From an uncultured Pseudomonadales bacterium (GTDB lineage: Bacteria > Patescibacteriota > Microgenomatia > UBA1400 > UBA12028): 64,000 nt of DNA. The notes beneath the pieces were generated by a model. The model was not told the DNA's origin. It worked only from the letters and a program-made list of their open reading frames with translations, and did no database searches. Made by a program: the position numbers and the translations under genes. Shown here in pieces: positions 19,969 to 58,826 of the stretch. The stretch covers positions 77,621 through 141,620 of the forward strand of contig CAZWPK010000002.1 of NCBI GenBank assembly GCA_964635905.1, written 5' to 3'. Numbering within the stretch: position 1 is the stretch's first letter; each line of letters opens with the position of its first letter.

Positions 19969-19985
19969 ACGATATACTTAGTCCC

Positions 19986-21648: not shown

Positions 21649-23828
<2,180 letters not shown>

Positions 23829-24933: not shown

Positions 24934-25571
24934 TCTAGCAAACACCGGCAAATATGTATTCCGTCGATGAGCGTCATTCCTTTATCGGTATCATGATAAA
25001 TAGCTTCAATTTCAATAACTGCATACTGAACGTGCTCTTTGGTTACTCGCATTGCTATCTCAGTCTCCACTTCATATCCCGACGATTTCCATTTCACTTT
25101 ACCATAACCTTTACGAGTAAGAGCTTTGTACCCGGAGGGAATATCAGGAATATAACCGCCGTAGAGCATGTTGAGCAAAACAGATGCGAATTTGTTACCT
25201 AAGAATCGCGATAATGGCATATTAGCGCCCATTTTGCGCACGCCAAATACAACATCAAACTCTCGTAGTGTAGCGATGAATTTAGGAATTTCTTTGGGAT
25301 CATGTTGATCATCAGCATCCATAAAGATGACTGCATCTGCATTGAGAGTCGAGAATGCATATTCGCATCCAGTTTTTAATGCTGCCCCTTTACCTAGATT
25401 TGTCTCATGAACCAGCACGTGTTTTGTATGATTGCCTGCCAAAGAGGCAGTATTATCAGTCGAGCCATCGTCGACAAAGATTACCTGAGGATGAATTGCT
25501 TTCACCTTTGAGAGTACGGTGGAGACATACTGTTGTTCATTATGGCCGGGGATGATGATAAAGACATTCAT
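24915..25571 (-). CDS. Polyprenyl-phosphate sugar synthase-like GT2 (Dpm1/GtrB family)
   Basis: Start at MNVFIIIPGHNEQQYVSTVLSKV; DxD region FVDDGSTDNT ... FMDADDQHDP. It is short and soluble, as in GtrB/Dpm1-like enzymes. Confidence 0.65.
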   Translation of the reverse strand: MNVFIIIPGHNEQQYVSTVLSKVKAIHPQVIFVDDGSTDNTASLAGNHTKHVLVHETNLGKGAALKTGCEYAFSTLNADAVIFMDADDQHDPKEIPKFIATLREFDVVFGVRKMGANMPLSRFLGNKFASVLLNMLYGGYIPDIPSGYKALTRKGYGKVKWKSSGYEVETEIAMRVTKEHVQYAVIEIEAIYHDTDKGMTLIDGIHICRCLLEWKVGL

Positions 25572-27260: not shown

Positions 27261-29048
27261 TTAGGGAAAGAGCTTTATCAGAAACATTTCATTCGTAATA
27301 CTTGTCTCACTGGTTAATGGTTGAAGTAAAAAGGTAGTTTTTTTCTTCGCCTGAAGATAGACAATCCCACCTTTATACGTAACGGGCTGCCAATCACTTA
27401 CCGTCCTGCCCCACTTCTCTTCAAATTGTTTTAGGAAATCTTTTCTACGGATGTTATCAATGTCGTCTACCAATAAGAACAGGCGCCCGATCTTCTTGTC
27501 GTCTTTGAAAAGGACGTACTGCGATGAAGCCATATCAAATTCTTTGGAAGGATACTCATCTTTGTACAACTCAATCGTTGCAGGAGTTCCAATCACAACA
27601 TCATCTACTAAGATGTATCTATCTTCGGAGCTTTTTCTTGGATCTTCCCAATAAACTAAGTTCCCAAAACGTTTGGTCGTTGGAGTCTTATCATTCGCCG
27701 GATAAATCAAATGGACAACGTTTAGTGTTTCATCCTGAGTTTTTACCTCAGGGACACCCTTTAACAAATAATTCAATCCAGCTCTATTTAAAGTTTGAAT
27801 ATCAATGGCCACATGAATCTCTGGATTTTCTCTGTATCTCTCTCGTACTAATTTTGCAGCTTCTGCTTGGCTACCAATCATGAGTTCTTTTTGAGAATTC
27901 AATAGAGTCACAAGACCAACGAAATGAAGCGTACTAAACGCAATGACTATTCCGAAAAGCAGTTTAGACACAGGAATTCTGATATGTGAAAGCATGGTAG
28001 CAATCATCCACAAAATGGCTGGAAACTGTATCAAAAAATAATATTCTGGCTTCGGTCCCTGGTATGGGAAGAAAAGCAGATTGATGCTAAAAAACCACAA
28101 AAGTGGAAACCAAGCGGTTTCAGGATTTTTATGTTTTCGTGCATAGACAACCGTCCACAAAACAACAATGCTGCCCGCTGCGATCGCTAGATACTGTTCT
28201 GTCTGCGGAATCAAGAATTTTCCAATGTTTTCCAAACTCACAAAGATATCTCGAATGAATGGGATCATAAAAAACTCTTTATTGGGAACAGCACCCGTAT
28301 TATTCTTAAGGACATCAATCACTCCACGACCGTTAAGCCAGTCATGTTTCAAATCAAAGATGAACGTTGGAAACAATGTGGCTAAACTCCCCAGTATCCC
28401 GGCAGCAACCGCATACTTTTTATTTCGTACCGGGAGACACCCGATAATCAATACAAATAGAATTAAAAATAGCCCTGAAAAATGCGCTTGATATCCCATG
28501 AATACACCTAAGACTAGAAGTAGTGCGTCTGCAATTCGTACGATTTTGTGCGAGATGATTTGACGCATGGGTAAAAAGACGAGGATTGAGGCAAGCATCA
28601 TTAAATTTGGATTCCAAGGAATTCTGTCCAATGTCACTTGGTAGAGAGACACGGCGTAGAACAAGAGAAAGAAAAATGAGATTCTTTTATCAGTCCGATA
28701 GAAAATAAAGAGAGAGCGAATGATCCAAAATGTGATAACGTACAAAACGATCGCCATCCCAACCACCGTCCATGGACTCTTGATGAAAAATGACAAGAAT
28801 GCGGTTAAATAATAGACAAATGGGCCAGTAAACATCTCTACTGGCCCTGTTCGTGGACCAACAAAATTCAAGTCTCCAAGTCGGATTTGAGCAGCATGGG
28901 TAAGAATTTGGATTTGGTCAAACTGTAAAGGATACAGATCATACCGATAGAGACGAAAGAAGAGACCACAAATAAACGCAATAAACGTCAAAACACCCGA
29001 TGATCGAACGAGTTGTCGTCCTAACGCTAATAAATGAACTTTATGCAT
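27261..29048 (-). CDS. Polytopic membrane protein, putative GT-C glycosyltransferase (DQ...GP subfamily)
   Basis: 595 aa. The first-loop motif FDQIQILTHAAQIRLGD ... VGPRTGP resembles the 21649, 53456 and 55016 paralogs. The C-terminal 200 aa are soluble. Confidence 0.45.
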   Translation of the reverse strand: MHKVHLLALGRQLVRSSGVLTFIAFICGLFFRLYRYDLYPLQFDQIQILTHAAQIRLGDLNFVGPRTGPVEMFTGPFVYYLTAFLSFFIKSPWTVVGMAIVLYVITFWIIRSLFIFYRTDKRISFFFLLFYAVSLYQVTLDRIPWNPNLMMLASILVFLPMRQIISHKIVRIADALLLVLGVFMGYQAHFSGLFLILFVLIIGCLPVRNKKYAVAAGILGSLATLFPTFIFDLKHDWLNGRGVIDVLKNNTGAVPNKEFFMIPFIRDIFVSLENIGKFLIPQTEQYLAIAAGSIVVLWTVVYARKHKNPETAWFPLLWFFSINLLFFPYQGPKPEYYFLIQFPAILWMIATMLSHIRIPVSKLLFGIVIAFSTLHFVGLVTLLNSQKELMIGSQAEAAKLVRERYRENPEIHVAIDIQTLNRAGLNYLLKGVPEVKTQDETLNVVHLIYPANDKTPTTKRFGNLVYWEDPRKSSEDRYILVDDVVIGTPATIELYKDEYPSKEFDMASSQYVLFKDDKKIGRLFLLVDDIDNIRRKDFLKQFEEKWGRTVSDWQPVTYKGGIVYLQAKKKTTFLLQPLTSETSITNEMFLIKLFP

Positions 29049-30261: not shown

Positions 30262-32325
30262 CTAGTTCTTAAATTGATAAACTTTCGCTTCCGTATTTTG
30301 ATATACGAGGCGAAGGTTAGCAAGTAACGGATCAAATGGAAGAGCATCCTGAGTTCGTAAATATAGATATGAAATATTCCATCGAGTAAATGCCTCACGA
30401 TAATCTGCGGGATTATGTGATCCGAACAGTCGTTGAACTTCCAAATATCGCGATTTGGTTTCTTGTGCATGGGTGTCCAACACCTTTTGACCTGCAATAT
30501 AGTTGAATCGATTTGCAAAATAGGATGTGTATGGGGTGTTCATATCCAAAGTATTTGCAAAATGAGACTGAATGATTGCATCACTTTTTGCATTCCGATT
30601 AATGTAGGACAACGCCGCAATTTCTTCACTGGAAATGAGCGTCACATCAATTCGTTCCTGATAAGAAGACAGAATTTTGTAGGTTTCATAGACAATGCGA
30701 GGCATAGTTGCCAGGATGATAATGAGTGTCATTCCTTTCAGGAAATATGATTTTGCAGTCCACCAATTTGTCAGGACAATAGCTGCAGTTATTGATAATA
30801 GAGTCAAACTTGAAGCAAAGAAATTAAATACATTAAACGATCCACTTTTTTGCAGTGTGTATAAACCTAAAAATGTAAAAATCACGCTGGGAAGCCAAAT
30901 AAAACCATACAGAATTTTACCTCCCAAAAGATTTCGAATTTTTTTACCCCCATTAAAACCCAGTAATCGAGTGCCATGGATACAGAGAAGCGTCACCACA
31001 ATTGCTATTCCGTCATACACGATAATTTTCGGGGTATTTTTATAGTATTCAACGATTGCTCGTTTATAGCGCCATTCTCTCCAATCAAGATTTTCCTCCG
31101 CCATAAATAATTTTGGCCATTCTAATGGGTAAAATCCTAATCCTCCGGATCCTCGATTTGGCGGTAAATACACACTCAACGCAACAAAAAGCATTACACA
31201 ACCGATGAGAAAAGACTGAAAAACAAAAGTTTTATTAAACTGTCCTATTGAGTGCTTGTGCTCACGCAATAGAGTCCTAGCATAGGTAATCGCATCGAGC
31301 ACCCAAACAAATAAGAATCCTGTCGCAAACAATAAACCAAAATAAACTTTAATTCCAAATAGCACTCCCCCAAGGATTCCTATAAGGATTCCAAGTTTCC
31401 ATCCTTTTGATCGACGCCAAAGTAGGAGTAACAAAAAAAGCACCAAGAAAACTAATTTCGCCATCGCATGCGGCATGTTTAAAAATTGAGTTGCTCCATT
31501 GTCGATTGCAGACGTATAAAAACCCCAGGAATGATGCAACCATTGCATAAAGACATACGCGATGTCTGCGCCAAAATAAAGAAAAAACAAGCTAAAGTGC
31601 ATCAGAAGCCGTCTATAGGTGTTCGACTGTCGGCTTGCCAATGTCGACACTAGCACCAGTAAAGTGATTCCCGTTAAGACAGAAATCAAAACCGGGGTAA
31701 ACTGAAAAAACAAGTGATGGATGGGGAAATTAAAAATTCTTGCCTGTTCAGCCAAGATCAGATCTGACCAATAATGATAGTTCACTACCGCGGTATGGTC
31801 GGAACCGGGTTCCATCGGTGGAAACTGTCGGACAATACTTGAAATAAGTCCAAGATGAAAGATCCCATCCTGACCATGAACGCGATAGAAGTACATTCCC
31901 TTGGTATCCGTCAGTCCACTGCCAATCATCTGCAAGACTTGAACCAGACTTCCGATCAAGAGCATCATCGCTAAGGAGAAATTGCTGGGCTTACACGCTT
32001 TAACCAGAAAGGATACTCCCCGTAAAATCTCGGATCGACGCAATAACAAGGCGACAAGTAAGACCCCAACATATCCATACGTTAAAAAGCGGAGCTGTAA
32101 GTATCCTACAATGTAACCTTGAATTCCCCAAAGAATCATTCCTGTAACTGGAATAACAACCAATTTTTGCCAAGCGGAAAGCTGAAGTTTAAATCTGTTG
32201 ACTATTAACCATCCAGGGACCACAAAGACGATCAGCACAGAGATCAGATACCCAATCCCCAGGAACCATAGCCTGGGATCAAAAAGTCCAAACATAGCAT
32301 CATTGTACAACCATTCCAACCTCAA
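30262..32325 (-). CDS. Large polytopic membrane protein with C-terminal soluble domain, unknown (GT-C-like architecture)
   Basis: 687 aa, more than 14 TM helices, and a C-terminal hydrophilic domain of about 180 aa. Confidence 0.4.
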   Translation of the reverse strand: MRLEWLYNDAMFGLFDPRLWFLGIGYLISVLIVFVVPGWLIVNRFKLQLSAWQKLVVIPVTGMILWGIQGYIVGYLQLRFLTYGYVGVLLVALLLRRSEILRGVSFLVKACKPSNFSLAMMLLIGSLVQVLQMIGSGLTDTKGMYFYRVHGQDGIFHLGLISSIVRQFPPMEPGSDHTAVVNYHYWSDLILAEQARIFNFPIHHLFFQFTPVLISVLTGITLLVLVSTLASRQSNTYRRLLMHFSLFFLYFGADIAYVFMQWLHHSWGFYTSAIDNGATQFLNMPHAMAKLVFLVLFLLLLLWRRSKGWKLGILIGILGGVLFGIKVYFGLLFATGFLFVWVLDAITYARTLLREHKHSIGQFNKTFVFQSFLIGCVMLFVALSVYLPPNRGSGGLGFYPLEWPKLFMAEENLDWREWRYKRAIVEYYKNTPKIIVYDGIAIVVTLLCIHGTRLLGFNGGKKIRNLLGGKILYGFIWLPSVIFTFLGLYTLQKSGSFNVFNFFASSLTLLSITAAIVLTNWWTAKSYFLKGMTLIIILATMPRIVYETYKILSSYQERIDVTLISSEEIAALSYINRNAKSDAIIQSHFANTLDMNTPYTSYFANRFNYIAGQKVLDTHAQETKSRYLEVQRLFGSHNPADYREAFTRWNISYLYLRTQDALPFDPLLANLRLVYQNTEAKVYQFKN

Positions 32326-33434
32326 ACTGAACTACCAACCTTTTCATATGCTTTTATGGTTTCTTTAGCAGTCTTCTCCCATGAGAATCGTGCAGCTTGC
32401 TCGACCCCTTTTTTAACCATTGCTTGCAACTGCTTATCAGAATATCGCAGCACTTTTTCAATTGCTTGTCGGCAGTCATCCACTTCCATTGGGTGGAAAT
32501 AGACAGCAGCTTCACCAGCGACTTCCGGTAGGCTACCAGCTCGAGAACACACGATTGGCGTTTTACATTGCATTGCTTCTAGGACGGGTAATCCAAATCC
32601 TTCGTAGAGTGACGGTTGAATGTAAAAGCTAGCTAACGAATAGACTCCTGATAGTTCCTCAACAGAATCCCCTTGTAAGGAATCGATGATCAACACTCTT
32701 TTCTCAAGTCCTAGTCTAGAAATGGATTGATGAATCGCTCTGCCTTCTGGAATAGATTGATTATTCATGCTTCGACCAACAAGAACCACATTCAGTTTAG
32801 GAATTTTGGAAACGACATTGAGCAAGAATGGCAAGTTCTTATTGTAATTAATATCTCCCACATAGAGAGCAAAATGTTTCGGCAAATTATATTTTTTCCG
32901 CACCGTATCTAGAATTCCTTGTTGGGGCTTTCGAATATCAGGGGACGCAGCTAAATACACTACGGAGATTTTATCGGATTTGACATGAAGATGATCGACA
33001 ATATCACGCTTGGAACTCTCCGAGTCAGTAATGATATGAGAAACAGATCGTAACGCAAACTTCTGTCTCCAAAAGTTTACCGTACCTTTAATTCCTTTCG
33101 GATAATGCAGTGGAAAGAGCAGCGGGATAACATCATGGATCGTGACCACAGTTCTGGCGCGTTTTGGGATCGGTAGGGTCGGAAAAAACAAATCAAAAAA
33201 AGGATAGTGGACGATATCCACCGTATTTTGTTCGATCGTTTCCGGCGTAAAAATCTGATGCGATGATGAATTCTCCCGTAGGGCACGGTAAAGCTCCGCT
33301 GTGTAGCGACCAATGCCTCGAATGGCACTACCGTTTGTAAGTGGTGAGGTATCAACAAGAATGTTCATTGACTGTACTCTACTCACCATTGTAAAAACAT
33401 TCAATCCCTGCTTATCACAAAATGCCGTGTACAA
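32322..33434 (-). CDS. Glycosyltransferase family 4
   Basis: IQPSLYEGFGLPVLEAMQCKTPIVCSRAGSLPEV is the GT4 E-x7-E motif. 370 aa. Confidence 0.7.
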   Translation of the reverse strand: MYTAFCDKQGLNVFTMVSRVQSMNILVDTSPLTNGSAIRGIGRYTAELYRALRENSSSHQIFTPETIEQNTVDIVHYPFFDLFFPTLPIPKRARTVVTIHDVIPLLFPLHYPKGIKGTVNFWRQKFALRSVSHIITDSESSKRDIVDHLHVKSDKISVVYLAASPDIRKPQQGILDTVRKKYNLPKHFALYVGDINYNKNLPFLLNVVSKIPKLNVVLVGRSMNNQSIPEGRAIHQSISRLGLEKRVLIIDSLQGDSVEELSGVYSLASFYIQPSLYEGFGLPVLEAMQCKTPIVCSRAGSLPEVAGEAAVYFHPMEVDDCRQAIEKVLRYSDKQLQAMVKKGVEQAARFSWEKTAKETIKAYEKVGSSV

Positions 33435-35146
33435 TTAATGTAGTCCTACCTATGAAAATACGACACTGGCCAATTTGGCACTCTCAAACCTTTTACCTGT
33501 TTCTGATTTTTGGCTTGGCTCTCTTCCTTCGAGTATTTCATCTGGATCAGATACCATTTGGTCTCCATGAAGATGAAATGATGAATGGGTATGTCGGACG
33601 ATTTATTCTGCTGAATGGGAAAGATCTGTACGCAAACAAATGGCCGCTTCTATTTTTTGACAATTTTGGTGACTATCCCAACGTAATACCTATGTATATC
33701 TCGGGTATTTTTACCTTTCTGTTTGGAGTTACTGCATTTGCTGTCCGATTTCCGATTGCGGTCATCGGTTCAATGATTGTGTTTCCAGTCTACAAAATTG
33801 CGTACTCAATCTTTAAAAACTCAAAGATTTCACTATTAGCAGCGACATTAATTGCCATTACCCCATGGCATATCATCTTATCTCGATCGACAGCCGAGAA
33901 CATTTTGGCAACAACGGTCTACTTTTCTGGTGTTTTCTTCTTACTGAAGTGGATTCATGAAGAAAAATCTAATCGTACTCCCATTCTGCTTTCAGTACTT
34001 TTTCTAGCTTTGACCTATGTACTCTATCCGGGATATCGTATCGTCTCGCCGCTAACCCTCTTTTTGGGTATCTTCTTTGCTGCCGATAAGAAACAGCGAC
34101 TAATTCTTTCGATCATTACACTCTGTTTCTTTGTGACAACCTTTGCAATATCAAGAACATATTGGGGGCAAGGAAGATTTCAGCAGACATCCATCTTCTA
34201 TTTCAATAATACGGTACAAGGGAGACTCGATGGTTTGGCGGTTGGTGAAGGTCAGATGAATGTCCTGACTGCCAGAATATTTCATAACAAAATTGTTGGA
34301 TATTCCAGAGAATTTCTACACCAGTATGTGTCGTATTTTTCGTTTCCGATGTTGTTTTCCCAAGGTGGTTTACCGGGAAGATATCGGTTAGATGACAGTG
34401 GCTTGTTGTATTATTCGTACTTAATCATTATTGTCGTTGCTTTTCTTTCCGTAACATTCCTTCCCCGTCAACAGAAGTCAAAAACTCCTTGGTCTACGGA
34501 ATCCAAAACTTTCCTTTTCATACTACTTTTATTTGCTATCTCCCCAATCCCTAGCTCCCTAACATTAGATGACGTTCCAAATGTGCATCGCACCGTCACC
34601 ATGTCCGTATTCTTTGTTCTTCTCACCACGTATGCGTACGCACAGATCGGGACGATTCATTGGAAGCGCTTTCAGTTGCGTTGGCTTCTTTTGGTGCTGG
34701 TAGGCATTGAAAGCGTGTATTTTTGGCATCAATGGATGACGCATTCCCCAGCGTCTCAAACAGTACATCGTGGAGATGATAGAACTGCTCTAGCCCGATA
34801 TATCATCGAAAATCAGGATCGTTATGATCAAATTTATTTGCCCCAAGATGCAAAACCTCTGTATTACCTGTTTTACTCCAATAGTTTTGATGCATCGCTA
34901 GCAGGACAATTCCAAAAGAATATTCGCTTATCACAGTTTGGAAAAGTTCACTTTACAAAAAATAATTGTCCTTCTGAGGAGATCCTAACCGCGATGACTC
35001 CACGTTCATTACTTGTTGATCGAGGCGAATGTTCAACGGCTGGACCACTAGAAGGAATTGCAACAATTAAACGAGTGAATGCAACGAACTCCTTTAGGAT
35101 TTACGTCTTAGCAAGTCCACTTCCGACTCCCGTACCATTGCGTTAG
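33422..35146 (+). CDS. ArnT/PMT-like GT-C glycosyltransferase (COG1807-like), paralog A1
   Basis: 574 aa. The first loop FGLHEDEMMNGYVGRF carries the DE...Y motif where ArnT/PMT enzymes have theirs. It has about 11 to 13 TM helices and a C-terminal soluble domain. Confidence 0.55.
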   Translation: MPCTINVVLPMKIRHWPIWHSQTFYLFLIFGLALFLRVFHLDQIPFGLHEDEMMNGYVGRFILLNGKDLYANKWPLLFFDNFGDYPNVIPMYISGIFTFLFGVTAFAVRFPIAVIGSMIVFPVYKIAYSIFKNSKISLLAATLIAITPWHIILSRSTAENILATTVYFSGVFFLLKWIHEEKSNRTPILLSVLFLALTYVLYPGYRIVSPLTLFLGIFFAADKKQRLILSIITLCFFVTTFAISRTYWGQGRFQQTSIFYFNNTVQGRLDGLAVGEGQMNVLTARIFHNKIVGYSREFLHQYVSYFSFPMLFSQGGLPGRYRLDDSGLLYYSYLIIIVVAFLSVTFLPRQQKSKTPWSTESKTFLFILLLFAISPIPSSLTLDDVPNVHRTVTMSVFFVLLTTYAYAQIGTIHWKRFQLRWLLLVLVGIESVYFWHQWMTHSPASQTVHRGDDRTALARYIIENQDRYDQIYLPQDAKPLYYLFYSNSFDASLAGQFQKNIRLSQFGKVHFTKNNCPSEEILTAMTPRSLLVDRGECSTAGPLEGIATIKRVNATNSFRIYVLASPLPTPVPLR

Positions 35147-36039
35147 GTGTGTTGCTGATATGAAGATTCAACGTATTTTAGAAATGCGATCGGCCAGTGA
35201 AGTCCACTTAGTAGTGACCAAACAAACCCACTAAATCCATCTAAATAACCTTTGTGTCGAAAAAAGAGTAGCACAAAGATTTTGAGTGGTTGCCAAACCA
35301 CATAGTGGATAAACGATGGAAGAGACACGGGAACTTGGTTCGCTTGAAGCTGATCCGCAGTTAAACTGGTATAGCGATTTGCGCGCAGTAGGTACCGAGA
35401 AAAAGTCGGGTCAGCTTGATGAATCATCGGTTCGATCAACCAACTGACTCCACCAGTGACATCCATGGTTTCATGAACATCTTTACATGGCCAAACTGCA
35501 GTCCCATTTTTTACTAAGCGAATTACTCCGTCAGGAAAAACACCAGCATGCATCAGATAGGACCCTAAAAACCAATTTTTTCGAGCAATAAAATATGCCG
35601 TAATTGGCGCGGTTGTTTTATACTCTTTCTGATTGCGTAATTCTAGGTTGTGGTAATGGGCGAGGTATGATTTCCGAACGGACTCTGGTAGGTAATCGAA
35701 ATTGGATACAGTGGTTGAAGGGTGGACTCCTGAAATAACCTGCAAGATTTCATCTTTTAGCTCTGGCGTTACAATTTCGTCAGCATCAAGATACAAAATC
35801 CATTCCCCTTTTGCCTTTTCACCCACAGCCTGTTTGTTGAAGTGAAACATCTTTTTATTGGTCATGGGTACTACAGTCGCCCCAAAAGATTTTGCAACTT
35901 TTACAGTGTTATCCGTACTTTCCCCATCCGCTATTAAAATCTCATCTGCAAACCCAACCAAGGGAGGCAAAGAAAGTTGTAAGTTTTCTGCCTCATTATG
36001 TGTTGCAATGACTACCGATAGTTTTAATTCCTTTTTCAT
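35143..36039 (-). CDS. Glycosyltransferase family 2 (WaaE/KdtX-like subfamily)
   Basis: LSVVIATHNEAENLQLSLPPLVGFADEILIADGESTDNT and DxD YLDADEIV. Paralog of 43876..44706 and 45709..46632. Confidence 0.7.
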   Translation of the reverse strand: MKKELKLSVVIATHNEAENLQLSLPPLVGFADEILIADGESTDNTVKVAKSFGATVVPMTNKKMFHFNKQAVGEKAKGEWILYLDADEIVTPELKDEILQVISGVHPSTTVSNFDYLPESVRKSYLAHYHNLELRNQKEYKTTAPITAYFIARKNWFLGSYLMHAGVFPDGVIRLVKNGTAVWPCKDVHETMDVTGGVSWLIEPMIHQADPTFSRYLLRANRYTSLTADQLQANQVPVSLPSFIHYVVWQPLKIFVLLFFRHKGYLDGFSGFVWSLLSGLHWPIAFLKYVESSYQQHT

Positions 36040-36494
36040 AATGCCGAAATATCAATTCGATTAAATAATGCGACACTGGGTGGTGCTAGCTCATAGTCAC
36101 TCAGTTTGTTGATATCAGCCCAGACGAATTCCTGATGTTCATCGCTTAATTTGACAGTAACCGTCAAAGCATCCTGTCTTAATTGTACTGCATAAACCCA
36201 AAACTTCATTTCACACCATACTTTTTCGCCGGTAGGAAGAATCTTTTCTGCTGCAGCACTACCCTGATCATCCACTAATTGAACTTGCTCTATTGGATAC
36301 TCTATTCCGGTTTCTTCAAACACTTCACGGACTAACGCTTGCTGTAATGATTCGTTCGGTTCAGCACCACCCCCTGGAATGTGCCAAGTCGATAAGTACA
36401 CACCCCCATGCACTGGATTCTTTTTGACCATGAGTAACTTATGGTCATGGCTTAAAATTAACGCTGCTACAATCTGACGTGCAATGGTTTTCAT
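36036..36494 (-). CDS. Nudix hydrolase
   Basis: Perfect Nudix box G-x5-E-x7-REVxEExGI (GGGAEPNESLQQALVREVFEETGIE). 152 aa. Confidence 0.8.
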   Translation of the reverse strand: MKTIARQIVAALILSHDHKLLMVKKNPVHGGVYLSTWHIPGGGAEPNESLQQALVREVFEETGIEYPIEQVQLVDDQGSAAAEKILPTGEKVWCEMKFWVYAVQLRQDALTVTVKLSDEHQEFVWADINKLSDYELAPPSVALFNRIDISAL

Positions 36495-36498
36495 AGGT

Positions 36499-38172
36499 TC
36501 ACTGTCTCCAAATGACCCATACGGTCGTCATATCAGGACGTCTGATGAATGCAGTCACTTCTGCCTGAGGTGGAACAGCATCAGGACTAGTGGCGTAGAT
36601 TCCTGTAGTGCTTCCCACTGCGTCAATGAAATGATAATCCCCTACCTGCAGCAGTTCTAATTGATCTTTTGGAAGATCGGACTCGATGTGTTGTACAGCT
36701 TTTGGATCATAGTTTGAAAAGAAGAGATAGTACATTGAAGGCCGACCTTGATACCTGCTTACATAGACTTGTTCACCATCTTTCTTTTGTTTTTCTAAAG
36801 TGGAGAAAAGTTCCTTGTATCCGAATTGCCAATCATTTGCGCTGATCACTGGATACGCTAGTTGAGACCAACTTAGAAAACGGGCACCGTAAAAGAAGTA
36901 TCCACCGATTAAACAGAGAAAGATAATTTTTTGAAGTCGTTTATTGGTGCGTTCAAAAATCCATAGATAACCGAGACTGGAAAGAATCGAGAACGCTGGC
37001 GCTGCAATCAAAAACCGTAAGGCGTGCGGAGATGGAGTGACCAAAGCTGGCGCAACTGCTGCCAGGGCAATCCAGCCGACAATCACGATCATTGAGACTA
37101 GCTTTTGTTGTGCCATCCGATCATCTTGAGTTGTCTTCTCCTTTTTGGATCGCAGCGCTCTTACCAGTTTCAGTGAACCAATCAGAATCACTCCAACAAT
37201 TCCAATACTTTCAATTGGATAGAGTAGGCCACCGTTTCCGATTCCATGACGCAAATTTCCATCCCCTCTAAGAAATAGGAACGGGACGGAAAAATGGGAG
37301 AGCATCTGCCCCAAAAAGACTTCAGCAAAAAATCGATACCGATGAAAAAGGACTCGTGATAGGGTCGAATTTCCATGAGCCTCAATTGCAGCGTTACTTT
37401 TTAAAATTGGGTCAATATCTGAGAAGATTGACGTCTGTGTAAACCGCGACGATACAACGGAATTATTTAAGTTTAGAATAAAGGGCCCGATAAGTGCTAC
37501 CGCAACAATACTAGAGAGTAACGCTGAAAGCCAAAACCTTGGCAACAGTTTCTCTTTCCAATACTGAGTAAAGACAATACTCCCACCCATCGCCCCGACG
37601 AGTGGAGCAAACAAGCGTGCAGCATGATAGATATACATCGATACTCCCAAACACAACGCAGAAAGTAGTAGGTAGGGTGCAGTCTTTCTAGCTTTCAGAA
37701 GAAAATAGGCACCACCCAAAATAAAGGTCAAAGCAAGATTCACTTCCCAGCCTCCTCTCGAAAATTGAATCGCCCAAGGTTGAATTCCAAACAAGAAGGC
37801 TGCCAGAATCGCCGACTTTTTGGTAAACAGTTCTTTTGTGATCAGGTAGACGAGATACATACTGACAACACCCGCAATCGCAGAGGGCAAACGAACACTC
37901 CATGCATTCAGTCCAAGAGTAGAAACAAATGGAACCAGCGCATAAAAATACCCACTTGGTTTGTAGTCTCCAAACGATGGAAAGGCTAAAACAGGCAAAG
38001 TATTCCCATGATGATCTTTTCCAGTTTTTGCGATGGAGTAGGCATCGTAGCCTAACGCAACTTCTTCCCAATATAATGATGGGGGTACGGAATCGAGCTT
38101 ATAGAGTCGCAAAAATGATGAGACAACTAGAATGAAAAAAAGTACGATCGATGAGGATGATAGTCGTTTCAT
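36499..38172 (-). CDS. ArnT/PMT-like GT-C glycosyltransferase, paralog A2
   Basis: First-loop motif PPSLYWEEVALGYDAYSIAKTGKDHHGN is homologous to the A1 and A3 paralogs. I chose the internal Met (MKRLSSSSIVLFF...) as the start, which abuts the stop of the 2H gene. The track ORF extends to 38346. Confidence 0.55.
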   Translation of the reverse strand: MKRLSSSSIVLFFILVVSSFLRLYKLDSVPPSLYWEEVALGYDAYSIAKTGKDHHGNTLPVLAFPSFGDYKPSGYFYALVPFVSTLGLNAWSVRLPSAIAGVVSMYLVYLITKELFTKKSAILAAFLFGIQPWAIQFSRGGWEVNLALTFILGGAYFLLKARKTAPYLLLSALCLGVSMYIYHAARLFAPLVGAMGGSIVFTQYWKEKLLPRFWLSALLSSIVAVALIGPFILNLNNSVVSSRFTQTSIFSDIDPILKSNAAIEAHGNSTLSRVLFHRYRFFAEVFLGQMLSHFSVPFLFLRGDGNLRHGIGNGGLLYPIESIGIVGVILIGSLKLVRALRSKKEKTTQDDRMAQQKLVSMIVIVGWIALAAVAPALVTPSPHALRFLIAAPAFSILSSLGYLWIFERTNKRLQKIIFLCLIGGYFFYGARFLSWSQLAYPVISANDWQFGYKELFSTLEKQKKDGEQVYVSRYQGRPSMYYLFFSNYDPKAVQHIESDLPKDQLELLQVGDYHFIDAVGSTTGIYATSPDAVPPQAEVTAFIRRPDMTTVWVIWRQ

Positions 38173-38825
38173 AAATGAATTGTCTGAATGCATGTCGAAT
38201 ATGCCGGATCTAAGATCCTCTTTTGATGACGATACACTTCCACGGTGGAAATTGACAGCGGACCAAAATTTGTATGCCGATTGTTCTTTAACATCTGAAT
38301 ATATCCTGCCTTCGGAGGATGACAATACCGCGATAAATTCACCCAACCCATGTATTCATAACTCGACAAATGTGTTGTGTAGTCATCTCCATGAATAGAT
38401 AGTTGGCTACGAATGGCCTGTCGAAGTGAAAAGATTGAAAAATTTTGAGGATAGGCTGACACCGAACAAGAATACTGATTGGTTGCCGCCCCCAGAAGCT
38501 CAAATTGCATTGGAACTGTCAGAACGGATTGTAGAACTGCTGCTAATCTTGTCTGGTCATACTCTTCAGGTATTCGACCCAAAATTGTCAAATGGTAGAG
38601 TGAAATTGGATAATAGAACTGATTTGGATCTTCTGCCTCTAGCTTCTCTTGAAACATTTTTAGCATTCCAGTACTTTTGGAGTCTAATCTGCCAACAATG
38701 GTGATGTGAGTAGGTTCAATGGCGAAATCATACGAAACAACATCTGTGGCTTTAAACTCATCGAGTTGTGTACTACTTTGACGGGAAAATTGCTCGAAAA
38801 TGGAAGGGTCATCAACGGTGTTCAT
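38169..38825 (-). CDS. 2H phosphoesterase superfamily protein (LigT/ThpR-like cyclic phosphodiesterase)
   Basis: Two H-x-T-x motifs (PTHITIVG and YHLTILG) about 80 aa apart, which is the hallmark of the 2H family. Starting at the internal Met removes the overlap with the DUF1653 gene. Confidence 0.5.
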   Translation of the reverse strand: MNTVDDPSIFEQFSRQSSTQLDEFKATDVVSYDFAIEPTHITIVGRLDSKSTGMLKMFQEKLEAEDPNQFYYPISLYHLTILGRIPEEYDQTRLAAVLQSVLTVPMQFELLGAATNQYSCSVSAYPQNFSIFSLRQAIRSQLSIHGDDYTTHLSSYEYMGWVNLSRYCHPPKAGYIQMLKNNRHTNFGPLSISTVEVYRHQKRILDPAYSTCIQTIHL

Positions 38826-39036
38826 ATACAAATCTTGGAACCGTTTTTCCATCTAGCTGCACCTGTTCTGTAAACATTGATAGTGGCCGTACCCATACGG
38901 ATGACGTTTTTGATTCGTACAGAGGAACATAGACCACCAATTTTTCCAGCGACTCACTATGCGTTGCAATTGCTAACACATAATAGTACTTCCCTTTGTA
39001 ATGTCGATAGGTTCCACCCACCGTTACGTCCAACAT
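38812..39036 (-). CDS. DUF1653-like small protein
   Basis: 74 aa. The GTYRHYKG...YYV...ATHSE...VVY...LY...WVRPL.MF pattern matches my recollection of the DUF1653 signature. Confidence 0.45.
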   Translation of the reverse strand: MLDVTVGGTYRHYKGKYYYVLAIATHSESLEKLVVYVPLYESKTSSVWVRPLSMFTEQVQLDGKTVPRFVYEHR

Positions 39037-39041
39037 AGCAG

Positions 39042-40580
39042 TTATTGTTTGACAACCCAGAAAGCTGGCTTTCCATCCGGATACCTAATCTCTTTGACTA
39101 AATTTGCGTTTGAAGGGAAATCGTTTTGAGTGCCCACAACAAGAACCTTCCCCTGTCCCTTTGCGTCGTTAAATGGCGTATTGGAGATTGAATAGTTTGC
39201 AAGTGCACCTTGTCGGTATTGAATAGGATTGAGCTGTTTAAAAAGCAAAAGATAGATATAGGCTTGGCCATAGGCGTTTGTAAAATAAATTTTATCCACA
39301 CTGGCTTCCTCAGCTCGAACATACTCTAGTAGTTCTTGATAACCATATCCGAATTCGCTTAACGCAGTTGAGGTTGAATAGGTACGGGTATAGTGTTGTA
39401 CATAGTTAAAACACGAATACAAGGATATGCAAATGATGGCGGCACTCAACACCCGTGGCATCAAGACTGTAGACCTTACGTTGGTTGGTAATTTCAGATG
39501 CGAGAACAAACTGGAACAGCCGATGCTAACAATAATTTGCACCCAAGGAAGCCCTAAGATCGCTCGATTGGCATGGGGAACATCCAATCCAATTGCTGCA
39601 GGAAGCACAGATATCACATACATCGTAGGAATCCACCATAATCTGCGAAAGTCTTTATGCAGCACAATACTACCTACCCCAATCAATAGTAATCCGAATT
39701 CAAGTGGGTAAAGTATCCCAATCTCTTTAGTACTATGTCGGTACGTGATGTCATTTCCAGAGAGTAAATAGGACGGTGCAAACTGCGTTGCGATGTGAGA
39801 AAAGAAGAGTGATATAGCTTGAGGGTTACCAACAATCGTCGTACTCATCGCTCGATCATTCGCTTTCCCAAAAAATGACGCATACCCTAACGGAAGCAGT
39901 AGAATTCCGGCGATAACACCCGAAAATAAAAACCATCTCAATGATTTAGCAATATCTCGGTACAAAATTGTAACCAGTACAATCACAAATAAGGGAACGA
40001 CTACTTTGGCACTATGATACGCATACAGCGATAGGGAAAATGCTAACGCCCCAAGCGTCCAACAGTAGGGTCGGTTTCGTGCCACAAGCCAAGACAAGAT
40101 ACCAAATGAGACAAGAAACGCTGCAAGCATCGATTCAAAACCAATACGAGAAAAATGAATCGCCCACGGAGAAATCGCCACAAACAGCATCGACAAGAGA
40201 CTAAGAAACTGTACTTTTCTATATCCATTGATTCCAGCAAAACGCACCAAAATCTGTCGTGTCAAAAAAAACGTTATGATGACTAACCCGATTCCACTAA
40301 GAGCGATGGGTAATCGGATCAAGAAAGCACTGGGCGAAAAAAATAAAAAGAATACAGAAGTCACATAGATCAGTAGAGGAGATTTGTAGTCGCCAAAAGA
40401 GCGAAACACGATGGGCATTCTCTCCAGCCATTCATCTCTGTGAACAATGGCAATTCCAAAAGCGTTGTATCCTATTGCAGCTTCATCCCAAGTTAATCCA
40501 TTGGGAAACACTCCTAACTGGTAGAGTCGTAGGACACTTGCCAACACCACAATCAGAAAAAAAACTACAATCGTTTTCAC
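39042..40580 (-). CDS. ArnT/PMT-like GT-C glycosyltransferase, paralog A3
   Basis: GLTWDEAAIGYNAFGIAIVHRDEW has the DE...GY first-loop motif. 512 aa. Confidence 0.55.
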   Translation of the reverse strand: MKTIVVFFLIVVLASVLRLYQLGVFPNGLTWDEAAIGYNAFGIAIVHRDEWLERMPIVFRSFGDYKSPLLIYVTSVFFLFFSPSAFLIRLPIALSGIGLVIITFFLTRQILVRFAGINGYRKVQFLSLLSMLFVAISPWAIHFSRIGFESMLAAFLVSFGILSWLVARNRPYCWTLGALAFSLSLYAYHSAKVVVPLFVIVLVTILYRDIAKSLRWFLFSGVIAGILLLPLGYASFFGKANDRAMSTTIVGNPQAISLFFSHIATQFAPSYLLSGNDITYRHSTKEIGILYPLEFGLLLIGVGSIVLHKDFRRLWWIPTMYVISVLPAAIGLDVPHANRAILGLPWVQIIVSIGCSSLFSHLKLPTNVRSTVLMPRVLSAAIICISLYSCFNYVQHYTRTYSTSTALSEFGYGYQELLEYVRAEEASVDKIYFTNAYGQAYIYLLLFKQLNPIQYRQGALANYSISNTPFNDAKGQGKVLVVGTQNDFPSNANLVKEIRYPDGKPAFWVVKQ

Positions 40581-40712
40581 CCAGGTATTGTAGTATATGG
40601 ACAGCTCTTCCCGCTACTAGGGTGTCATTTACCTGTTTCTTTCCGTCCCCGGACTTGACATTTCTCGCTAAAAACGTGACTATTGCTTCTACTTAACTAC
40701 TTGGAGGCTATT

Positions 40713-41315
40713 ATGACCGTCACTCTTCCACCCCTACCCTTTGCACCGGATGCTCTAGAACCACACATTGATGCACAGACCATGCAAATCCATCACTCGA
40801 AACACCACCAGACGTATGTGGACAAACTCAATGCCGCCTTACAATCAGAACCGGGTGTTGAATTTAAAACCGTAGAAGAGTTATTACAACACATTTCTCA
40901 AGTTCCAGAATCAATCAATACTGCAGTCCGCAACCATGGTGGTGGACATAGTAACCATTCAATCTTCTGGCAATTATTAAGTCCGCAACCGAGCCAACCA
41001 ACGGAAGCGGTGAAGTCAGCGTTTGAACAAGCATTTAATTCTTGGGAAAATTTCGTTGAAACGTTCAATGGTGCTGCAACCAATCATTTTGGGTCGGGCT
41101 GGGCATGGGTGGTTAAAACACCGACAGGAACACTGGCAATAAAGTCCTATCCAAATCAGGACTCACCGTACATGGAAGGTAATACACCAGTTCTTGGAAT
41201 TGATGTTTGGGAGCACGCGTACTATTTAAACTATCAAAACCGTCGACCAGAGTACATCAAAGCCTTCTGGAATATTATCAACTGGGAAGAAGTTGATAAA
41301 CGGCTCTCCTTGTAA
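40713..41315 (+). CDS. sodA: Fe/Mn superoxide dismutase
   Basis: LPFAPDALEPHIDAQTMQIHHSKHHQTYV ... GIDVWEHAYYLNYQNRRPEY are canonical Fe/Mn-SOD motifs. GGAGG lies 6 nt upstream of the ATG at 40713. The track ORF starts 30 nt earlier. Confidence 0.9.
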   Translation: MTVTLPPLPFAPDALEPHIDAQTMQIHHSKHHQTYVDKLNAALQSEPGVEFKTVEELLQHISQVPESINTAVRNHGGGHSNHSIFWQLLSPQPSQPTEAVKSAFEQAFNSWENFVETFNGAATNHFGSGWAWVVKTPTGTLAIKSYPNQDSPYMEGNTPVLGIDVWEHAYYLNYQNRRPEYIKAFWNIINWEEVDKRLSL

Positions 41316-41359
41316 CGAAACGCTACATACAAAAGCAATTGCCTGACTGATTGCAGAGC

Positions 41360-41827
41360 TTAGATCGCGATTTTTTCAACACGGTAGGATTTTTCTCCCG
41401 TGGGAAGAGAAATGGTGATGGTATCCCCCACGCTCTTTCCCAGTAAGGCTTGACCAATCGGGCTCTCTTGGGAGATCTTTCCTTTTCGTGGATCCGCCTC
41501 GTATGCGCTTACAATTCGATACACAACGCTTTGATGGTCGTGAGAAATCGTAACGACATTTCCCACTCGAATCTTGTCATTGGTTGTGGTCGATAAAATA
41601 TATCCATATTTCAGTTGATATTGAATCTGACGAAGCTGTCTTGAAATGGAACCTAGCTCGAATTTGCCATAGTGATAGACACCATTCTCTGACAAATCTC
41701 CCATTTCTCGAGCGACTCGAACCCGTTCCTTTACCGCTTCTAGTTCTAAGGTTCGCTGCCCTAATTCTTTGACGAGTTGTTCATGGGCTTCCCGAGTAAA
41801 CGGAATGGCTGGATCTTGTTTCTGCAT
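41360..41827 (-). CDS. greA: Transcription elongation factor GreA
   Basis: 155 aa. The N-terminal coiled-coil ends in the acidic tip (...ARE..DLSENGVYH) and the C-terminal FKBP-like domain is present. Length and pattern match GreA. Confidence 0.8.
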   Translation of the reverse strand: MQKQDPAIPFTREAHEQLVKELGQRTLELEAVKERVRVAREMGDLSENGVYHYGKFELGSISRQLRQIQYQLKYGYILSTTTNDKIRVGNVVTISHDHQSVVYRIVSAYEADPRKGKISQESPIGQALLGKSVGDTITISLPTGEKSYRVEKIAI

Positions 41828-46638: not shown

Positions 46639-48141
46639 CTATCTTCGTACTAATGAAAGTAACTCTTTTTGTATCTTCTCAAATCCAAGTAACCCGAGCA
46701 AGCCAACGAAAATACAACCACCGGTAACCACACCTGCCACAAACAGGGGTACAGACTGACTCCACAAGGGGATAAAGCGATACAAAATCACTGCCATACA
46801 CACGGAAGCAACCAGTTGTCTCCAAATTTGTTCAAAAAATTCAAATGGTACTTCCTTCTGTAACGCTTTGACCACAAAAATAACGGTCAATGATATTGCC
46901 ACACTAGCCAAAGCTACTCCATTAAAACCGAAGCGCCAGATAGCAAGTGGGGTGAGCGTCCACTGTAATAGCGTCCAAATCAACATAAACCGTAATGACG
47001 TGTTTATTTTCCCTATCGCATTGAGCGTATTGATCAATGGAGTAGAGATCGACGAAAAAGCGATACTGATACACATTAAACCTAATGTTAATAAGGCTGG
47101 TTGCCATTGCGCATATTTTGGAACTAACGCGGTTAAGGGGATAAACATCACTGAAAACCCTGCTAAAAGTGGGAAAACGGCTAAACTGACAAAAAAGAGT
47201 GTCTTCTCAATCGCACGCTTGAGCAGATGTGAATCGTGCTGCAATCGCGCAAAGGTAGGAAAGGTGATTGCCATAATGCTGTCTACTCCGAAACGATACG
47301 GAAGCCTGGACGCCTGATTTGCCCAGGTAATGTAGCCCAATTCCGGTTTAGAAAGTAAAAAGACGGTGATAACCGAAAATAATTCGTCCTTGATCTTCGC
47401 AATCACGTCATTGGCTTGGAATTTAATTCCGACTTTCATTAAGTCTGAAAACGCAGATTTTGAGAAGGCGAACCCTACCGGCCAGCGTTTAATGGAAAGC
47501 ATGATGACCACACCAATGATGGCTCTAGCCAACACCGCAATCGAGTAACTGGTAATGCCCATTCCTCTCCAAGCGAAAAATAAGACAATTCCATTAAAGA
47601 CCATGGCTTCAACCACAGCTGGCATGGCCAGTTTTCCAAATTCCAATTGTCGTTCTAGTAAGATCGATGAATTCGTTTTCAGGGAAACAATGGGAAACGA
47701 CAGTGCAAACGCCGCGGCAAGAAAGACTGCTGGCATCTCTAGCTTTCCATTGAGATGTAATGTCCATGCAGTTGTAATGATCAGGACACAGACAATCCAG
47801 GCAAGAATTTGCTGAACGGTAAAGACTGTGCGTAAATCGCGAACTGTTGGGGCTTCTTTTTTTTGAATCAGTGAGGCTGCTAAGCCAATGTCCGAAATAA
47901 TGGTAAAGAAGCTACTGATGGAAACGACAATTCCATAGATTCCAAAATCAGTAGTAGATAATAATGCGGACAATAAAAAATAGGAAAGTACCCCTATTCC
48001 TTGGAGAAAGAGTGAGCGAATCACATAGGAAATCGCCCCACGCATGGACCTCTTTTTAATATCTTCAACTTGTAGAACATCTTCTGCAATGGACAATGCG
48101 GGATTTAAATCTTCTGATGGCTGATCTTTCGCTAATACCAT
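46639..48141 (-). CDS. Wzx-like oligosaccharide flippase (MOP superfamily)
   Basis: About 500 aa with 12 to 14 TM helices in the polysaccharide-biosynthesis-protein layout. The track ORF starts at 48180, but I use the internal Met. Confidence 0.55.
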   Translation of the reverse strand: MVLAKDQPSEDLNPALSIAEDVLQVEDIKKRSMRGAISYVIRSLFLQGIGVLSYFLLSALLSTTDFGIYGIVVSISSFFTIISDIGLAASLIQKKEAPTVRDLRTVFTVQQILAWIVCVLIITTAWTLHLNGKLEMPAVFLAAAFALSFPIVSLKTNSSILLERQLEFGKLAMPAVVEAMVFNGIVLFFAWRGMGITSYSIAVLARAIIGVVIMLSIKRWPVGFAFSKSAFSDLMKVGIKFQANDVIAKIKDELFSVITVFLLSKPELGYITWANQASRLPYRFGVDSIMAITFPTFARLQHDSHLLKRAIEKTLFFVSLAVFPLLAGFSVMFIPLTALVPKYAQWQPALLTLGLMCISIAFSSISTPLINTLNAIGKINTSLRFMLIWTLLQWTLTPLAIWRFGFNGVALASVAISLTVIFVVKALQKEVPFEFFEQIWRQLVASVCMAVILYRFIPLWSQSVPLFVAGVVTGGCIFVGLLGLLGFEKIQKELLSLVRR

Positions 48142-48145
48142 AGGT

Positions 48146-49834: not shown

Positions 49835-49838
49835 ACAA

Positions 49839-56542: not shown

Positions 56543-56565
56543 AGGAATACAGAAAATAACTTTTC

Positions 56566-58810: not shown

Positions 58811-58826
58811 AACAAAGAAATCCTTT

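Follow-up and report, generated by a model that had tools for sequence, protein, structure and literature searches.

A Nudix hydrolase and a 2H-like protein with an altered active site in a glycosylation operon of a Woesebacteria-like bacterium

ThpR from E. coli is a 2H enzyme whose proximal histidine acts as the general acid and whose distal histidine acts as the general base (PMC4201822). The H125A and R130A mutants of this enzyme are inert, while the T127A mutation is harmless (PMC4201822). XanP also belongs to the 2H enzymes; its substrate, a sugar phosphodiester that is not a nucleotide, is made from UDP-Gal, which is a precedent for a sugar-linked substrate (PMC12807533). Here we describe a 2H-like protein in which the distal histidine is replaced by a tryptophan. 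It is encoded, together with a Nudix hydrolase, in an operon of glycosyltransferase genes located on a 64,000-nt stretch of contig CAZWPK010000002.1 (the window). All coordinates are those of the whole window, and the residue numbers of the 2H-like protein are those of its 218-aa form.

The 2H-like protein and its active site

Used as a single query, the sequence of the 2H-like protein has no match in Pfam, NCBIfam or the PDB (phmmer), and a word-indexed search of 5.8 billion proteins returned only four close homologues. The family was opened up only by an exhaustive profile search with a hidden Markov model (HMM), which gathered 190 clusters at 50% identity. The AlphaFold model obtained from an alignment of 133 sequences has a pLDDT of 96.4 and a pTM of 0.91; it was used in place of a model obtained from four sequences, which had a pLDDT of 62 and was set aside. 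All of the 40 Foldseek matches in the PDB at E ≤ 0.001 are 2H-fold proteins, with a probability of 1.00, and they include PH0099, AKAP18, LigT/ThpR, ASCC1, cyclic phosphodiesterases (CPDases) and Usb1. The family profile matches PH0099 (2fyh/1vdx) with an E value of 1e-12, and 40 of the 133 family members match PF13563. The model, the Foldseek matches and the profile bear out, at the level of the fold, the 2H phosphoesterase assignment made in an earlier note on this DNA: the protein is predicted to adopt the two-lobed, internally duplicated alpha/beta 2H fold. The gene and the residues discussed below are located as follows.

38169..38825, minus strand: 2H-fold (LigT/ThpR-like) protein, 218 aa; its start, set by homologues, is M10 of the long open reading frame (ORF)
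38586..38594, minus strand: proximal motif H78-L-T80, equivalent of the general-acid histidine of ThpR
38328..38345, minus strand: distal motif W161-V-N163-L-S-R166, which replaces HxTxxR (codons read)
38706..38708, minus strand: H40, the histidine of the first "HxTx" of the earlier note; not conserved

H78 and T80 are invariant in the family (133/133) and are aligned with the HxT of PH0099. The column of the distal histidine holds a tryptophan in 98 of the 133 sequences and a histidine in 23; that of the distal threonine holds asparagine (79 sequences), threonine (35) or serine (13). The distal arginine, R166, is kept in 127/133, and a second arginine, R135, is also near-invariant (124/133). 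The stretch "gWinilR" of the family lines up with "aHITLGR" of 2fyh/1vdx. In the 32 closest sequences, which share about 30% identity, H78, T80, G83, P126, R135, W161, N163 and R166 are all invariant. Because the tryptophan, the asparagine and the arginine are invariant at such a low identity, the altered site appears to be under selection rather than decaying.

The earlier note had credited the protein with two HxTx motifs. The first of them, H40-I-T-I, is not conserved (H40 is a phenylalanine in all three close homologues, P0002, P0003 and P0004, and varies in the 32-sequence alignment) and the second, H78-L-T-I, is the proximal motif, while the true distal motif is the W161-V-N163-L-S-R166 given above. 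With respect to the 2H superfamily, the protein thus has the fold and the proximal His-x-Thr/Ser, and lacks the distal His-x-Thr/Ser. The motif of the ThpR/LigT subfamily is not found either: R166 is present, but the distal histidine is absent and the phenylalanine position of HxTxxF is occupied by Gly83. The window protein has no match to TIGR02258 even at E ≤ 1, and its relatives score 28–38 bits against this model, whose cut-off is 65.7 bits. Judging from its sequence, it would be a 2H-derived variant and not a ThpR/LigT orthologue.

From the residues that it retains, the 2H-like protein would keep the acid and the phosphate clamp, without the water-activating base. Since Trp-x-Asn replaces the water-activating His-x-Thr of ThpR, the chemistry or the substrate must differ from those of the canonical RNA 2',3'-cyclic phosphodiesterases. 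By analogy, the inertness of the H125A mutant of ThpR would argue against a canonical activity of the 2H-like protein on RNA 2',3'-cyclic phosphate (RNA>p) or on 2',3'-cyclic mononucleotides (2',3'-cNMP).

The closest relatives include one from a Candidatus Woesebacteria genome, and all the other named relatives are from the same phylum. The protein apparently belongs to an uncharacterised, Woesebacteria-centred clade; a limited search of the searchable literature found no account of it. The protein is predicted to be cytoplasmic and soluble, and family members usually stand alone. In one of them (P0136, 470 aa), an Asp/Glu racemase (PF01177, 1e-15) is joined to the N-terminus of the 2H-like part, and a racemase-like ORF is found about 5 kb from the 2H-like gene in another locus (L006, 7134-7697). 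Distant relatives with an HxT/HxT pair of motifs occur in Bacteroidota (P0175, P0191, P0235 and others, from Flavobacterium and related genera). They are labelled "2'-5' RNA ligase family protein" or "mutarotase", the latter label being unexplained and not used here. The Bacteroidota relatives have sub-threshold TIGR02258 matches only, and the Flavobacterium locus (L018, 7001-7684) has no sugar genes.

The operon and the recurring Nudix pair

The 2H-like gene is the third of six consecutive ORFs which run on the minus strand from 40580 to 35143 and form one translationally coupled operon, in the order GT-C A3, DUF1653, 2H-like, GT-C A2, Nudix and GT2. Apart from the 2H-like gene located above, its features and flanks are the following.

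40581..40682, no strand assigned: intergenic region of 102 bp between the divergent genes of A3 and of a superoxide dismutase (SOD); presumed promoter region of the operon
39042..40580, minus strand: GT-C A3, 512 aa, GTG start; gene 1 of the operon; polytopic membrane protein
38812..39036, minus strand: DUF1653 protein, 74 aa; PF07866
36499..38172, minus strand: GT-C A2, 557 aa, start at the ATG at 38172 as refined by homologues; PMT_2/PMT; membrane protein
36036..36494, minus strand: Nudix hydrolase, 152 aa; PF00293
36303..36371, minus strand: Nudix box G42..I64 (GGAEPNESLQQALVREVFEETGI), which fits GX5EX7REUXEEXGU at all specified positions
35143..36039, minus strand: GT2 glycosyltransferase, 298 aa; PF00535; final gene of the operon
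33422..35146, plus strand: GT-C A1, 574 aa; convergent neighbour, outside the operon

The gene order and the family assignments of the earlier note (Nudix, DUF1653, GT2, GT-C) are confirmed by the ORFs, Pfam and paralogy. Its statement that all the genes are coupled by overlaps or by gaps of 4 nt or less is nearly right. As read from the sequence, it holds for four junctions, namely DUF1653/2H-like (14-nt overlap), 2H-like/A2 (ATGA, 4-nt overlap), A2/Nudix (TGAacctATG, 4-nt gap) and Nudix/GT2 (ATGA, 4-nt overlap), while the gap between A3 and DUF1653 is 5 nt. The same note had counted three ArnT-like paralogs in the operon; A3 and A2 are inside, but A1 lies on the plus strand and converges on the operon, with the stop codons of A1 and GT2 overlapping (TTAG). 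A consensus scan of the region from 34.8 to 41 kb for promoters and terminators gave site counts equal to the shuffled expectation. The divergent arrangement of SOD and A3 is also found in loci L001–L003.

Gene contexts of the 2H-like family were sampled in about ten lineages, a small sample, at 22–43% identity to the window protein. DNA scans with the single 2H-like protein returned two loci from genomes and five from metagenomes, and the scan of viral contigs returned no relative. In L001 and L003 (GCA_018060955.1), where the 2H-like proteins are 63–67% identical to that of the window, the whole 20 kb retrieved is collinear with the window, including SOD and GreA; this synteny shows only that the genomes are close.

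A Nudix gene or domain is adjacent or fused to the 2H-like one in four lineages, which are divergent (29–43% identity) and scattered on a star-like tree. In the clade of the window, both genes belong to one operon; in P0038, the two form a Nudix::2H-like fusion; in L022 the Nudix gene precedes the 2H-like gene with a gap of 19 nt, and in L024 the order is reversed, with a gap of 4 nt. In loci L001–L025, a strict Nudix-box regular expression matches only ORFs which adjoin the 2H-like gene or lie one gene away from it. In three lineages the Nudix partner is of the MutT-like kind; that of L024 is NudE/YffH/AdpP-like, and a NadD gene (TIGR00482, 138 bits, above the cut-off) is found 3 kb away in this locus. 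The possibility that these partners are orthologous was rejected, their likeness being confined to the Nudix box.

The exact trio of Nudix, 2H-like and DUF1653 genes beside GT-C genes occurs only in relatives whose 2H-like protein is 63–72% identical to that of the window. What recurs is the pair of Nudix and 2H-like genes, rather than the trio or the GT-C genes; the link of the pair to the flanking GT-C genes and to DUF1653 is confined to the lineage of the window. The earlier note would have its reading refuted if the trio were not conserved next to GT-C genes in relatives and the proteins matched housekeeping subfamilies, and this is largely what the contexts show; what stands is the recurrence of the 2H-like gene with Nudix genes and in the sugar operons described next.

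The 2H-like gene lies in operons for nucleoside diphosphate (NDP) sugars or glycans in four lineages, one of which is the clade of the window. In L010, it is inserted between GT4 and GT2 genes with gaps of 1–13 nt; Wzx and PMT genes are nearby, and no Nudix gene is near. In L007, it is accompanied by genes for an SDR epimerase, an NTP_transferase, a UDP-Glc dehydrogenase and a GT2. P0053 is a fusion of a CapF-C/FdtA-type cupin with the 2H-like protein, encoded beside two SDR sugar enzymes. A 218-aa protein encoded next to the Nudix::2H fusion in L007 was considered as a paralogue and discarded, as it does not match the family HMM.

In L015 (5582-8657) and L017 (5552-8636), the 2H-like gene is divergent from that of a class A penicillin-binding protein (PBP, with transglycosylase and transpeptidase domains) and PheST/TyrRS genes flank them; this second conserved arrangement might indicate a connection with the cell wall instead of with translation. 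A 111-aa ORF located between two SDR genes, upstream of the cupin::2H-like fusion, has a faint match to MazG (L013, 1645-1980; E 0.05); were this match genuine, the ORF would provide the family with one more pyrophosphohydrolase partner. In L022, a gene for a YdjC-like carbohydrate deacetylase (6706-7539; PF04794, 2e-34) is directly upstream of the Nudix/2H-like pair, in a locus that has no glycosyltransferases. A role in anti-phage defence was also considered and set aside: PADLOC returned no match for the 2H-like, DUF1653 and glycosyltransferase proteins, and the Nudix matched only a generic single-gene candidate (PDC-S07). A literature search found nothing on a module of 2H, Nudix and glycosyltransferase proteins.

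The glycosyltransferases, the Nudix hydrolase and the DUF1653 protein of the operon are ordinary members of known families. The Nudix protein matches PF00293 at 2.6e-17 (63.5 bits versus a cut-off of 21.1 bits), and its box (G42-x5-E48-x7-R56-E57-V-F-E60-E61-T-G63-I64) is as perfect as the earlier note had stated. Its closest PDB entries are 2rrk (NudG CTPase, 9e-10), 3grn (archaeal MutT-like) and 6dt3 (NudI, 4e-8). The closest NCBIfam models are PRK08999, NudI (46.6 bits versus 95) and pyrimidine (d)NTP diphosphatase, all far below their cut-offs, and PRK15472 is matched at 2.6e-12. An insertion of about 25 residues follows the box. These matches would class the protein as MutT/NudG/NudI-like, an assignment from sequence that gives no substrate. 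In ADP-ribose pyrophosphatases, a conserved proline is typically found about 16 (15–17) residues past the Nudix box. The window Nudix has no proline 15–17 residues after the box: residues 79–81 are S-A-A and the nearest proline is P86.

The DUF1653 protein matches PF07866 at 3e-26 (91.9 bits versus a cut-off of 23.5 bits) and PDB entry 3be3 at 1e-7. It is 55–66% identical to stand-alone homologues (P0275, P0309, P0381), several of which are proteobacterial. The homologues at this level of identity come from Gammaproteobacteria, Geobacteraceae and Cytophagaceae, and the value is unusually high for a protein of the candidate phyla radiation (CPR), which points to a very strong constraint or, alternatively, to horizontal transfer. 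Two homologues elsewhere are encoded between a transglutaminase/MoxR (BatD) cluster and an HSP20 gene. In the contexts sampled, no link of DUF1653 to 2H or Nudix genes was seen outside the Woesebacteria clade of the window, and a literature search found nothing on the function of DUF1653. We propose that it is a lineage-specific passenger in the operon.

Possible functions of the pair

The reading that we favour, tentatively, is that the Nudix and 2H-like proteins work in two steps, as a module, on a compound that is linked to a nucleoside diphosphate and probably derived from a sugar; we regard this reading as quite possible. A3, A2 and GT2 would be the glycan enzymes of an operon embedded in a very large island for cell-surface glycosylation, in a Woesebacteria-like (CPR/Patescibacteria) genome. 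In the first step, the Nudix would cleave the pyrophosphate of the nucleoside-diphosphate-linked compound; in the second, the resulting phospho-ester, or a cyclic or diester phosphate formed from it, would be bound or processed by the 2H-like protein. H78-x-T80, the Arg166 of the presumed phosphate clamp and Arg135 are retained in the cleft, where the tryptophan and the asparagine may contact the sugar. Likely substrates would be side-products derived from NDP-sugars, or surplus donors of glycosylation, so that the module might serve in clean-up, salvage or pool control.

The sequential action of the two proteins on one class of "nucleoside-diphosphate-X" compounds is inferred from their pairing in both gene orders, with different Nudix subtypes and in one fusion. 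In the operon of the window, a sugar-linked substrate seems most likely because of the independent sugar-nucleotide operons in which the gene occurs, the cupin fusion and the replacement of His/Thr by Trp/Asn. Tryptophan and asparagine are residues typical of sugar-binding sites. The link between nucleotide metabolism and surface glycosylation that the earlier note had put forward is thus plausible, if unproven, with the recurrent Nudix pairing and the NDP-sugar/glycan contexts in its support.

Several observations weigh against this two-step reading. Not all the Nudix partners are of one type (MutT-like in some cases, NudE/YffH-like in another), nor are they orthologous, and the contexts come from only about ten lineages. 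In three lineages the 2H-like gene lies among PheRS/TyrRS/ThrRS, IF3-L35-L20 and divergent PBP1A genes, and in one lineage it is next to cas1-cas2. Glycan-gene surroundings are no proof of function, because unrelated genes, those of SOD and GreA, are embedded in the island as well, with conserved synteny. The 2H-like protein may also be no enzyme, since the distal histidine is essential in ThpR, where H125A is inert (PMC4201822).

Some of these points would suit a housekeeping module for nucleotides, RNA ends or ADP-ribose which merely resides in the glycosylation island, an explanation that we consider unlikely, with an appreciable chance nonetheless. The 2H-like protein would act on the 2',3'- or 1'',2''-cyclic phosphates of RNA>p, 2',3'-cNMP or the cyclic phosphate of ADP-ribose (Appr>p), and the nucleotide or ADP-ribose so formed would be broken down by the Nudix, in the manner of the KptA-2H-Macro-Nudix network. 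Co-transcription with GT-C genes would then be a consequence of the compact genome of a CPR bacterium. Archaeal and bacterial enzymes of the LigT/ThpR type are indeed the best matches of the 2H-like protein, in sequence and in fold, but the distal histidine is a tryptophan in 98/133 sequences and in all of the 32 closest, and the corresponding ThpR mutant, H125A, is inert (PMC4201822). Proteins of the 2H and Nudix types co-occur in RNA-repair and ADP-ribose systems (PMC9503650); KptA/Tpt1, RtcB and Macro genes, however, were not seen in any locus retrieved. The three lineages in which the gene is found among aminoacyl-tRNA synthetase and translation genes, the NudE/YffH/AdpP-type Nudix of L024 with NadD 3 kb away, and the interspersed SOD and GreA genes would all fit such a module. 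They are to be set against two independent sugar-nucleotide contexts (the CapF/FdtA cupin fusion and the SDR–NTP_transferase–UDP-Glc dehydrogenase genes) and against L010, where the gene is coupled in translation to GT4 on one side and to GT2 on the other, and a Nudix gene is not near.

It is improbable, in our view, that the 2H-like protein is a non-catalytic pseudo-enzyme, whose cleft (the histidine, the two arginines, the tryptophan and the asparagine) would serve to sense a phosphorylated nucleotide or sugar, or to hold it, and which would regulate or chaperone partners such as the Nudix or the glycosyltransferases. One catalytic histidine is lost while the remaining cleft residues are strictly conserved, but the conservation of the proximal His-x-Thr and of both arginines, which are invariant or nearly so, goes beyond the usual needs of binding. 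Non-enzymatic 2H folds are found among the matches, namely the central domain of AKAP18, which binds AMP (2vfk), and the trypanosomal mitoribosomal protein ms64 (6hiw, 7aor); AKAP18, however, keeps both HxT motifs, and hence is no precedent for the loss of the histidine. Fusions to three different enzymes (Nudix, cupin and Asp/Glu racemase) suit an accessory domain, whereas the protein usually stands alone, without a recognisable output or interaction domain.

The original interpretation of the earlier note, in which a Gmm/WcaH-type Nudix tunes the GDP-sugar pools used by the GT-C enzymes and the 2H protein is a canonical two-histidine cyclic phosphodiesterase, is very improbable. The Nudix is indeed in a glycan operon, and genes for gmd, a second SDR and a UDP-Glc/GDP-Man dehydrogenase are present in the window at 57.8–61.1 kb. 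However, gmd (57842-58852) is about 21 kb from the Nudix gene, with several genes or gene blocks in between, so that this is not the adjacency of gmd/fcl loci. The window Nudix has 20 NCBIfam matches at E ≤ 0.01, and the Gmm/WcaH/NudD model NF011963 is not one of them, although this model does pick up the Nudix of L022 (5e-7). No GDP-mannose mannosyl hydrolase (GDPMH) chain is found among the 46 PDB matches at E ≤ 0.001, and the 2H-like protein has no second histidine.

Beyond the two-step module that we favour, a bolder proposal, which we hold to be rather doubtful, is that the H-x-T/W-x-N-x-x-R proteins are a new family of phosphosugar-specific enzymes, centred on Woesebacteria to judge by its named members, evolved from RNA cyclic phosphodiesterases and partnered with Nudix proteins for a so far unrecognised step of proofreading or salvage in envelope glycosylation. 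Such enzymes might open or form hexose cyclic phosphates, or cleave sugar-phosphodiester or NDP-sugar intermediates, with the tryptophan and the asparagine gripping the sugar. This step would serve the supply of nucleotide-sugars or polyprenyl-phosphate-sugars in ultra-small bacteria.

A conserved, half-degenerate 2H site that is apparently under selection and is repeatedly paired with a Nudix points to an unassigned step in the handling of nucleotide-linked metabolites, and provides a testable pair of proteins. If the link to NDP-sugars is true, it would be a second example, after XanP, of 2H-fold chemistry beyond RNA or nucleotide substrates. If it fails, three corrections stand: the protein is not a canonical two-histidine 2H enzyme, the Nudix is not Gmm-like in sequence, and the adjacency to GT-C genes is lineage-specific.

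The glycosylation island and comparison with known systems

From about 12 to 61 kb, the majority of the genes in the window are related to glycans and form an island (12571-61109). It encodes at least eight PMT_2-type GT-C paralogues, that is at least five in addition to A1, A2 and A3, as well as many GT2 and GT4 glycosyltransferases and further SDR enzymes. Its main features are listed below.

12571-14457, 21649-22899, 33422-35146, 36499-38172, 39042-40580, 49839-51638, 53456-54991 and 55016-56650: PMT_2-type GT-C paralogues
40683-41315, plus strand: Fe/Mn superoxide dismutase (SOD)
46639-48180: Wzx-like flippase
48146-49894: YfhO-like protein
56566-57783: GT2+GtrA fusion
57842-58852: gmd (GDP-mannose 4,6-dehydratase; PF16363, 3e-134)
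58827-59783: SDR
59790-61109: UDP-Glc/GDP-Man dehydrogenase

The genes of SOD (plus strand) and GreA (minus strand) occupy 40683-41827, between two blocks of glycosyltransferase genes, and this arrangement is kept in L001 and L003. The GT2 of the operon matches PF00535 with an E value of 1e-15. A2 matches PF13231 at 2e-11 (44.6 bits versus a cut-off of 26.1 bits) and PF02366 at 1e-6, and A1 matches PF13231 at 5e-7. The Pfam search returned no match for A3, which has only a weak match to TIGR03663 (Agl23, 8e-7). The three proteins are true paralogues (BLASTP E values from 1e-16 to 1e-38; A3-A2 9e-38, A3-A1 1e-16), and the acidic motif which follows the first transmembrane segment reads "WDE" in A3, "WEE" in A2 and "EDE" in A1. 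A3 would thus belong to the PMT_2/ArnT-like GT-C enzymes by its paralogy only. In L001 and L003, the A3 orthologues are equal in length to A3 and those of A2 have 557–558 aa.

Four large predicted proteins of the island (19929-21644, 25568-27259, 27261-29048 and 30262-32325; 563–687 aa) have no match in Pfam. Those at 27261-29048 and 30262-32325 look polytopic from their sequences, and the former (TM595) shows a faint similarity to A3 and A2 (E 0.003–0.035). All four could be additional, diverged proteins of a GT-C-like or polymerase type. A 726-aa protein at the margin of the island (16856-19036) combines a C-terminal class I methyltransferase (PF13489, 8e-27) with a long N-terminal part that has no Pfam match. 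A literature search found nothing on the biology of Woesebacteria GT-C enzymes; CPR/Patescibacteria devote large islands to surface glycosylation, whose biochemistry is almost unexplored.

The DUF1653 protein is a clear member of its family (PF07866, 3be3), and it is encoded next to a 2H-like gene only in the Woesebacteria clade of the window. The Nudix resembles Gmm/WcaH/NudD in that it has a Nudix fold and is encoded in a polysaccharide gene cluster; it differs from them by the lack of a model match, by its canonical box and by its position, which is not beside gmd/fcl. Its best matches, NudG, NudI and MutT, have a similar size and a perfect box, but the window protein scores far below the equivalog cut-offs and has the insertion of about 25 residues.

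The 2H fold is common to the 2H-like protein and XanP. The substrate of XanP, xanthosan, is a sugar phosphodiester derived from a UDP-sugar, so that 2H chemistry does occur in the metabolism of sugar phosphates. XanP, however, has and needs both HxT/S motifs, and works with a transporter in nutrient uptake in Xanthomonas (PMC12807533). In the network of Cpd1 or plant CPDase with Nudix and Macro proteins, the 2H enzyme acts on the ribose 1'',2''-cyclic phosphate of an NDP-sugar and the Nudix cuts the diphosphate (PMC9503650). The Arabidopsis CPDase (1fsi/1jh6) is among the Foldseek matches of the 2H-like protein, but these 2H enzymes keep both histidines, whereas the window protein has a tryptophan at the distal position.

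ThpR/LigT proteins (E. coli ThpR; PH0099, 1vdx/2fyh) have the same two-lobed fold, and 1vdx is the top Foldseek match (E 3e-8, TMt 0.72). The proximal HxT and the arginine of the distal HxTxxR are both found in the 2H-like protein. The latter differs by its WxNxxR motif, by Gly83 in place of the phenylalanine of HxTxxF and, according to the AlphaFold model, by about 40 additional N-terminal residues which include a long helix. The genes of its family are found with Nudix and sugar genes, and not with those of RNA repair.

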